This document shows, piece by piece, positions 12,698 to 12,811 of a stretch of DNA of 64,000 nt; the stretch's first letter is position 1; each line of letters begins with the position of its first letter. The notes under the pieces are model-generated. The model was not told the origin of the DNA. It saw nothing but the letters and a program-made list of their open reading frames with translations, and did not search any database. The stretch is taken from positions 1,263 to 65,262 of the forward strand of contig DATLOL010000080.1 of assembly GCA_035536275.1 (NCBI GenBank). Direction: 5' to 3'. The translations under genes were made by a program, and so were the position numbers. This DNA is from Thermoanaerobaculia bacterium. GTDB lineage: Bacteria; Acidobacteriota; Thermoanaerobaculia; Gp7-AA8.

Positions 12698-12811
12698 AAG
12701 TTTACCCCGCGCGCTTGCGCGCGCGGTCTCGGGTGCACCTGCGCTGATCTCGCTTCGGTGCGATCAGCGTGACGGCACCCGAGATCCCGCGTCTTCGCGT
12801 GGGATAAACTT
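12698..12811. repeat. family-A nested palindromic repeat, copy 2 (114 bp); overlaps the 3' end of metH
   Basis: AAGTTTACCCCGCGCGCTTGCGCGCGCGGTCTCGGGTGCACC-[spacer hairpin]-GGCACCCGAGATCCCGCGTCTTCGCGTGGGATAAACTT; read on the minus strand it encodes the last 15 codons ([15 protein letters not shown]) and the stop of MetH. Confidence 0.8.

Follow-up and report, generated by a model that had tools for sequence, protein, structure and literature searches.

REPINs, which are doublets of REP sequences, owe their mobility to tyrosine transposases called RAYTs (Bertels and Rainey 2011, PMC3116915; Di Nocera et al. 2013, PMC3733652), and a GTAG/CGTC tag marks the known REP super-families (PMC3733652). 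In Coxiella burnetii, copies of the repeats QMITE1 and QMITE2 extend over the last 1-50 bp of functional genes, which thereby gain C-terminal residues, the stop codon, or both (Wachter et al. 2018, PMC5896051). These overlaps include pntAA (42 bp), nagZ (50 bp), and enhC (33 residues), and the authors ask whether the hairpin affects mRNA processing (PMC5896051). Repeats that supply the C-terminus and stop of a gene are accordingly already known from Coxiella (PMC5896051), Rickettsia, and REP-rich proteobacteria (PMC3733652). In Acidobacteria, the TIR repeats are longer, partly self-complementary inverted units that occur as dimers, and an Acidobacteria-specific group of Y1 transposases (TIRYT) was proposed as their mobiliser (Di Nocera et al. 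2013, PMC3733652). No description of REPINs from Thermoanaerobaculia was found in a literature search.

The window, which is the whole stretch of 64,000 nucleotides analyzed here, comes from a Thermoanaerobaculia bacterium and has a G+C content of 66%. It encodes the cobalamin-dependent methionine synthase MetH on the minus strand (16528..12764). The open reading frame (ORF) is translated into 1254 aa, in which five Pfam domains (S-methyl_trans, Pterin_bind, B12-binding_2, B12-binding, and Met_synt_B12; E-values 1e-18 to 1e-110) all score far over the cut-off, and the five-module architecture (Hcy-binding, pterin-binding, B12 cap, B12-binding, and AdoMet activation domain) is complete. The alignment of the activation domain with that of E. 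coli (1MSK; E = 3e-87) reaches residue 330 of 331. E. coli MetH ends in LGYDAD (1MSK), and the MetH of the window is 16 residues longer at the C-terminus. An earlier interpretation of this DNA, here called the sequence-only reading, had proposed that a repeat supplies the last 15 codons and the stop codon of metH. This was confirmed: the translated frame leaves the conserved end, passes through 15 repeat-derived codons, K to R (12811..12767, minus), and stops at a TGA (12766..12764, minus) inside a palindrome. By translation and RNA fold, the TGA is positioned within the stem of the element's apical hairpin.

The 114-bp nested palindrome at 12698..12811 recognized in that reading is real. Its outer arms are at 12698-12713 and 12796-12811, and its inner 30-nt arms are at 12720-12749 and 12762-12791. 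Inverted repeats, the fold, and matches to other copies define a palindromic element at 12699..12810, which is 112 nt by the family consensus, and the earlier limits add one complementary pair. The family is designated as family A. The first base of the Lys (K) codon of the tail is flank, outside the consensus element, and the metH-side arm (12775..12810, minus), which shows 1 mismatch to the 36-nt consensus AGTTTATCCCGCGCGAAGACGCGGGATCTCGGGTGC in a Hamming scan, is translated after this K. The distal arm (12699..12734) is diverged from the consensus and failed the arm scan at ≤9 mismatches; remodelling of its small hairpin has produced a perfect stem of 8 bp, CCGCGCGC/GCGCGCGG (12707-12726).

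The element occupies the entire gap between metH and a convergent gene (11763..12695, plus), which was recognized by its ORF and by Pfam (CarboxypepD_reg and TPR repeats) and whose TGA ends 3 nt before the element. The original 3' end of metH had been presumed to be replaced or displaced by the repeat. Replacement is plausible, while displacement is untenable because only 3 nt lie between the element and the stop of the TPR gene, and no older tail or stop is seen beyond. In silico excision of 114 nt leads to ...YEPEPFHFK-stop, overlapping the TPR gene, and excision of 112 nt leads to a long antisense read-through.

The favored explanation, with a probability of roughly 0.8, is that the palindrome is a dispersed, non-coding family-A copy on the 3' end of metH and that the tail is a tolerated by-product. 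A copy of family A would have settled where metH ends, within the very short gap to the TPR gene, and the metH frame would run into the element up to the TGA 47 nt in, which gives a 15-residue, probably disordered tail. The frame could simply run into the element because the residues after the conserved YEPE are unconstrained in the clade. The arrival would have been by transposition, most likely by a hairpin-recognising single-strand HUH/Y1 enzyme (RAYT-like), with no target duplication. In transcripts, the hairpin of the element may serve as an mRNA 3' structure.

Family A is widely dispersed. One arm (TATCCCRCGCGNAGACGYGGGATCTC) was sought as an exact match in a single genome of each GTDB species, and the matches listed comprise at least 110 stretches in 11 Thermoanaerobaculia/Acidobacteriota MAGs. 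The listed loci include 101 doublets and 33 single arms; the doublets are mostly 105-113 nt long, with peaks at 106-107 and 111-112. The doublets have sharp ends, AGTTTATCCC...GGGATAAACT, and consist of two inverted, hairpin-bearing arms of 36 nt around a variable, largely self-complementary middle. The consensus of the arm is AGTTT-ATCCCGCG-CGNAGA-CGCGGGAT-CTC, where ATCCCGCG/CGCGGGAT forms an 8-bp stem in each arm and ~29 nt are near-invariant save one loop base. The variants of the arm hairpin (n = 19 cells) include 8 double changes that restore pairing, 8 broken pairs, and 3 single changes that are still paired, in an arm search whose pattern itself fixes most of the stem.

Two further copies were found in the window, both in short gaps between same-strand genes. 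One is a full doublet of 111 nt (52656..52766), recognized by its match to the metH copy and located between two minus-strand genes. The other is a short doublet of 81 nt (4912..4992) between the 3' end of an Hsp33 gene and the 5' end of a FabH-like gene, and the hairpin of one of its arms carries a compensated C>T / G>A change.

Target-site duplication was not recognized: flank identity of 2-5 nt is no commoner than in shuffled pairings, apart from a weak 2-nt excess (9 vs. 5.5). The flanks show a weak yTTC|...|GAAA composition and nothing more. Two other insertion models were rejected. Complementarity between the flanks, as from an outer stem or a palindromic target, is 2.70 of 8 pairs against 2.64 in shuffles, and the model of exactly one TTC flank per element, as in IS200-like insertion 3' of the target, fails since the two flanks are independent.

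In its structure, family A is similar to REPINs. It is composed of inverted imperfect palindromes with a short spacer, ~100 nt in total, forming one long hairpin, and REPINs likewise occur in tens to hundreds of copies per genome with no target duplication, with occasional copies within coding regions (PMC3116915, PMC3733652). The location in short intergenic gaps, mostly <20 nt from stops, with few copies between divergent genes, is also common to both (PMC3733652). The differences are the lack of the GTAG/CGTC tag at the hairpin foot, where family A carries AGTTT as the 5' tag; the longer arms (36 nt, ~29 nt near-invariant); and that a search of the window and 113 loci returned no RAYT gene flanked by family-A arms. 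CGTC is present in the family-A arm only on the complementary strand, at the junction of loop and stem. A classical MITE, a deletion derivative of a DDE-type IS, would be matched by the 36-nt arms as terminal inverted repeats, but not by the flanks, which show no target-site duplication. Family A may be called REPIN- or MITE-like; judging from its sequence, it is of the REP-doublet (REPIN) architecture rather than a classical MITE, though the tag is absent.

The other known systems resemble the metH copy in part. The QMITEs are palindromic repeats that end genes, as family A does at metH, while they have direct repeats and MITE-type TIRs, belong to an obligate intracellular gammaproteobacterium, and are unrelated to family A in sequence (PMC5896051). 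Rickettsia palindromic elements (RPEs) and intragenic REPs, both cited in PMC3733652, are palindromes translated in frame in conserved proteins at tolerant sites, and this likeness covers both the family-A tail and an insert of another family, family B, in a linker of MetH (described below). RPEs differ in being mostly internal insertions, whereas the metH ORF ends inside the element, and the families and hosts are unrelated. The acidobacterial TIRs have the phylum and the dimeric inverted-repeat units in common with family A; however, no TIRYT gene flanked by family A was seen, and the GGGGWSAS motif is absent from the family-A arm (PMC3733652). What is new here is a previously undescribed REP/REPIN-like family from an uncultured soil lineage, which appears to be readily taken up into unconstrained protein segments.

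Copy number and sharp ends are the features by which family A would be a mobile element. In ~0.9 Mb of loci, neither a transposase nor any other gene was recognized as flanked by family-A arms, the genes between neighboring copies are housekeeping genes, and no parent IS with family-A terminal repeats was seen in the loci analyzed. A tblastn search of Y1 transposases against 113 loci and the window matched solely the Y1 gene of the window itself. In this IS200/RayT-type gene (1239..1684, plus; Pfam Y1_Tnp PF01797, E = 1.6e-22), one extra nucleotide follows codon 11 (CAC A GTC) and shifts the frame relative to the 148-aa homologues. The gene is flanked (1168..1756) by inverted GTAG-tagged hairpins, GGCGGCAGAATGTAGCCCACGGCG(C/T)AAGCCGTGGG, at 1168 (+) and 1733 (-). 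This repeat, GTAGCCCACGGCG.AAGCCGTGGG, has GTAG plus a hairpin, the classical REP signature; it is unrelated to families A and B, and neither in the window nor in the 113 loci was a further copy of it found. Contigs of 1-2 kb carry most of the closest homologues of the Y1 gene, as expected for a multicopy element. These homologues belong to an IS200/RayT group without a link to family A.

The C-termini of the ~120 closest MetH homologues (75-100% identity) were compared. Their conservation stops at ...ERWL.P.L.YEPE, after which 3 to ~25 unrelated residues follow; the tail is hypervariable, and the total length is 1209-1315 aa. The statement that MetH normally ends shortly after LGY holds for E. 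coli, but the norm of this clade is YEPE plus 3-25 variable residues. A tail similar to that of the window is present in only 1 of 119 homologues, P0010 (...SIPRVDAGSPVTSR-stop), encoded on contig L001. There, a family-A doublet begins 7 nt after GAGCCG, as in the window, and the frame and the TGA are identical. The search for repeat-less relatives sharing the tail, which would speak for an ancestral origin, returned none, as the sole homologue with this tail has the same repeat at the same junction. These comparisons show that the tail of MetH is repeat-derived and lineage-specific, not ancestral.

The gene order metH -> <- TPR <- arginine decarboxylase is common to contigs L001, L002, L113, and L114. 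L002 and L114 keep this order without a family-A copy, and their MetH tails are unrelated. Their metH genes read through other GC-rich hairpins: the stop codon is in the loop of the second hairpin in L114 and 4 nt after the first hairpin in L002. Hairpin repeats in general collect at the metH 3' end. In L113, a family-A arm is located 5 nt further downstream of metH and is read in another frame (...LSSSLSRA-stop).

The elements of the window and L001 have a 20-nt interior stretch in common (95%), which is partly present in one other copy only. In a rough NJ tree of MetH, the window and P0010 are not sisters, so that a shared insertion takes several losses, or else two insertions occurred at the same nucleotide. 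No clean empty site for the insertion at metH was recovered among the loci of relatives. P0006 was considered as the nearest empty site and is uninformative, its downstream gene being different. The tail "..LTLSRA-stop" of P0049 was considered as a third family-A case and was left uncounted; its DNA is vaguely arm-like and its gene order is different.

Some other features of these relatives are recorded here. In L113 (6397..7240), the arm after metH has no partner, and ~800 nt of extra DNA precede the TPR gene, including two small ORFs with no Pfam match; this DNA may be a later insertion into the element. Repeat-like tails of other kinds recur in other lineages: five MetH homologues (P0029, P0057, P0071, P0073, and P0091) end in ..(S/N/T)AGVLAG-stop, and two (P0004 and P0005) end in ..GRASARP.TTVGAG-stop. 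On L114, which encodes P0005, the frame of this tail passes through the hairpin GGGCGGGC-NNNN-GCCCGCCC twice, and the stop falls in the loop of the second copy.

Among the alternatives, the one that survives best, though it is considered unlikely, is that the element is kept for a job in the host, either as a very stable hairpin by which the 3' ends of the two convergent mRNAs are set or protected, or as a translation-coupled brake. In the brake version, a stop codon in a strong hairpin (metH) or 3 nt before it (the TPR gene) would stall terminating ribosomes and cut output. Such braking was reportedly observed by Liang, Rudd and Deutscher (2015) where E. coli REPs lie no more than ~15 nt from a stop codon. 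The stability of the hairpin is in favor of a host job: the RNA fold of the metH palindrome has -72 kcal/mol, whereas dinucleotide shuffles reach -45.7 +/- 3.7 (z = -7.1; 0 of 200 as good). REPs near 3' ends are also thought to be RNA elements (PMC3733652). A canonical terminator and an Rfam match are nevertheless absent. No intrinsic terminator (GC-rich hairpin with a short loop and a T-run) was matched in 12300..13200 on either strand, and in the family-A consensus a T-rich flank precedes the element rather than trailing it. The search of the element against Rfam 15 returned no family, with two chance-level matches (E = 0.15 and 0.29) far under the gathering scores.

The conservation of the hairpin can be read in two ways. 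Compensatory changes keep the arm hairpin, and the distal arm at metH has been remodelled to a perfect GC hairpin, not decayed, as a host job would predict; yet such conservation is equally expected under recognition by a transposase. The presence of the element at the same junction in a species with ~10% different MetH also supports a host job, while the element is missing from most relatives that keep this gene order, and the hairpins there are unrelated.

The positions relative to genes were analyzed with a crude GC3-based ORF caller. The 74 classifiable doublets are divided into 51 between tandem, 18 between convergent, and 5 between divergent genes, whereas 46, 14, and 14 are expected (p = 0.026). 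At the median, a stop codon is 6 nt away and the earliest possible start 11 nt away, where the crude calling makes start codons approximate and the 5' distances lower bounds; in tandem gene pairs, the stop and start distances are not significantly different (p = 0.28). Family-A elements fill short intergenic gaps and avoid divergent promoter regions, like REPs (PMC3733652). The sequence-only reading had inferred a preferential landing of the repeats on the 3' ends of genes or slightly inside them. This is supported only in part: the elements are close to stops, which also favors a host job, but start codons are equally close, the one clear bias is the depletion from divergent regions, and the positions fit a landing bias and tolerance or retention alike.

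The ends of other genes were compared with that of metH. Among ~235 arms of family A, 30 are arms at or within which a long ORF of high GC3 has its 3' end, and each of the three frames is represented. In 11 of the 30, the overlap is only 1-2 nt and the leading A or AG of the element completes the stop codon; the other 19 overlap the arm by ≥18 nt. Seven of the arm-ending ORFs were checked with Pfam (asparaginase II, YkuD (L,D-transpeptidase), metallophosphoesterase, NAD-binding epimerase, radical SAM, Lgt, and Lnt), and they are ordinary conserved genes. ORF ends in these genomes are often set by repeats, and C-terminal "extensions", tiny "hypothetical proteins", and length differences between orthologues, such as those of MetH, are in consequence largely artefacts of repeats, not new domains.

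Five proteins, encoded by L001, L003, L031, L067, and the metH of the window, end in ...FIPRxDAGSxVxxR-stop, with the stop at element nt 45-47; the TGA position of metH in the window thus recurs in L001 and three unrelated genes. The nt-47 stop is present in 5 of the 10 ORF-abutted copies in the MetH frame, against 6 of 202 doublet orientations overall, and the partner arm is degenerate or missing in 4 of the 5 copies with this stop. This excess of early stops, which also speaks for a host job, indicates some selection on the ORF-abutted copies, and "pure by-product" is not the whole story. It suggests that only copies giving short tails are kept at gene ends, through selection for short tails and/or decay of the copy once it is partly coding. 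A role of the element as a three-frame stop cassette was rejected: 56% of its frames are closed against 64% in shuffles, and 6% of the orientations are closed in all three frames against 24%.

A separate case is contig L033, in which a 1111-codon ORF (1076..4408) with an N-terminal Walker A motif GAGTGKT carries both a family-B insert (..VILSRADGEGTPAES..SAAQDD..) and an in-frame family-A doublet. The ORF looks like a UvrD/AddA-type helicase by its sequence. An excess of REPs inside DNA-repair genes was reported (PMC3733652), and the helicase-like ORF with both repeats recalls it.

A much less probable alternative is that the repeat-encoded peptide itself is functional, for example as a tag for degradation or localisation, and selected, the repeats spreading a peptide module. 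The recurrence of ..FIPRxDAGSxVxxR-stop at the ends of at least five different proteins could be read in this way. The substitution pattern is against it: between the window and L001, the 15 codons of the tail show 1 synonymous vs. 5 non-synonymous changes, while the 200 codons upstream show 64 vs. 20. The variable residue of the peptide corresponds to the loop base of the hairpin, the same DNA is read in three frames into unrelated peptides in other genes (..SLSRA-stop, ..VYPARRRGISG.., and ..FIPRxDAGS..), many frames of the element are intergenic and never closed, and the tail is absent from 118 of the 119 MetH homologues. AlphaFold2 predicts a low-confidence coil. In the fragment of the activation domain (327 residues; mean pLDDT 84, pTM 0.83), there is no secondary structure past fragment residue 306 (MetH 1233), and over the final 17 residues the pLDDT drops from 63 to 50. 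The tail is without constraint at the protein level and is most readily viewed as neutral, a by-product rather than a peptide under selection; the conserved thing is the DNA/RNA hairpin rather than the peptide. The knowledge of MetH itself is unchanged.

The weakest alternative, an artefact in which misassembly at the repeat or a frameshift error runs metH into the palindrome, draws on the frequent breaks and mis-joins of MAG contigs at repeats and on the 1-nt frameshift in the Y1 gene of the window, but it is most improbable, as the order of metH, the TPR gene, and the arginine decarboxylase gene on both sides is the same as in four other assemblies, the junction, frame, and stop are identical in an independent ENA forest-soil assembly (L001), and the ORF translates into exactly the protein of NCBI record P0001, which is from a Thermoanaerobaculia MAG.

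The window contains a second family of hairpin repeats, family B. It has the hairpin foot ATCCCG...CGGGAT in common with family A, and the 5' tags differ (GTGTC vs. AGTTT). As a tentative idea, this class of non-GTAG hairpins, with a common foot and either AGTTT or GTGTC as the tag, might represent a novel guide/hairpin specificity of an HUH enzyme. One family-B element, GTGTCATCCCG...CGGGATGACAC (15378..15450, minus), is in frame inside metH, in the linker between the Hcy-binding and pterin-binding modules. The linker is the short ancestral LTVTPESNFI in 69 of 119 MetH homologues, and 39 are longer by inserts of 7-105 residues in this position. The family-B signature (VILSREDGEGS.. or VIPSEVEGS..) is borne by at least 20 of the 39 inserts, and several other homologues have short linker scars (LTVRHDTDAGFI). 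Within this essential enzyme, the linker is a hot spot for insertions of the RPE kind.

Family B also ends genes in the window. Two adjacent elements are at 43608-43705 and 43717-43801, and the first of them ends a VTT/DedA-domain gene (42948..43619; Pfam), whose last codons are GTG TCA TCC TGA. The proposal that a family-B repeat provides the final codons and TGA of this gene was correct: 43608..43619, covering the last 3 codons and the TGA, are the first 12 nt of the element. A short copy (9659..9691) lies between a gene at 8817..9656 and the arginine decarboxylase gene. Another element (57463..57572) begins 1 nt after the TGA of the gene at 56634..57461 and ends 6 nt before the stop of the convergent gene at 57579..59687, and one more (61014..61110) is 3 nt from the stop of the gene at 61114..62631.

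It is a tentative idea, rated slightly below even the host job at metH alone, that families A and B target or persist at permissive stop-codon and linker spots and that their hairpins are translation-coupled regulators of host genes. If this is true, MetH, whose linker and C-terminus are two independent hot spots repeatedly colonised in the clade, would be a natural system for the evolution of proteins and expression driven by repeats in a free-living soil phylum.

Other repeats were observed in the window. A 9-nt tandem unit, ATAGGTCCY, forms three short arrays (27577..27626, 41758..41834, and 49836..49903) near gene boundaries, and by the standards of this genome the arrays are unusually rich in A+T. 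An apparently non-coding stretch (51444..51781), upstream of the family-A copy at 52656, contains five diverged units of ~45 nt (TCAG.CC..GAA.....TTTTTCAGTGATCGA.G..CG..CGCCA) at a spacing of 21-105 nt.
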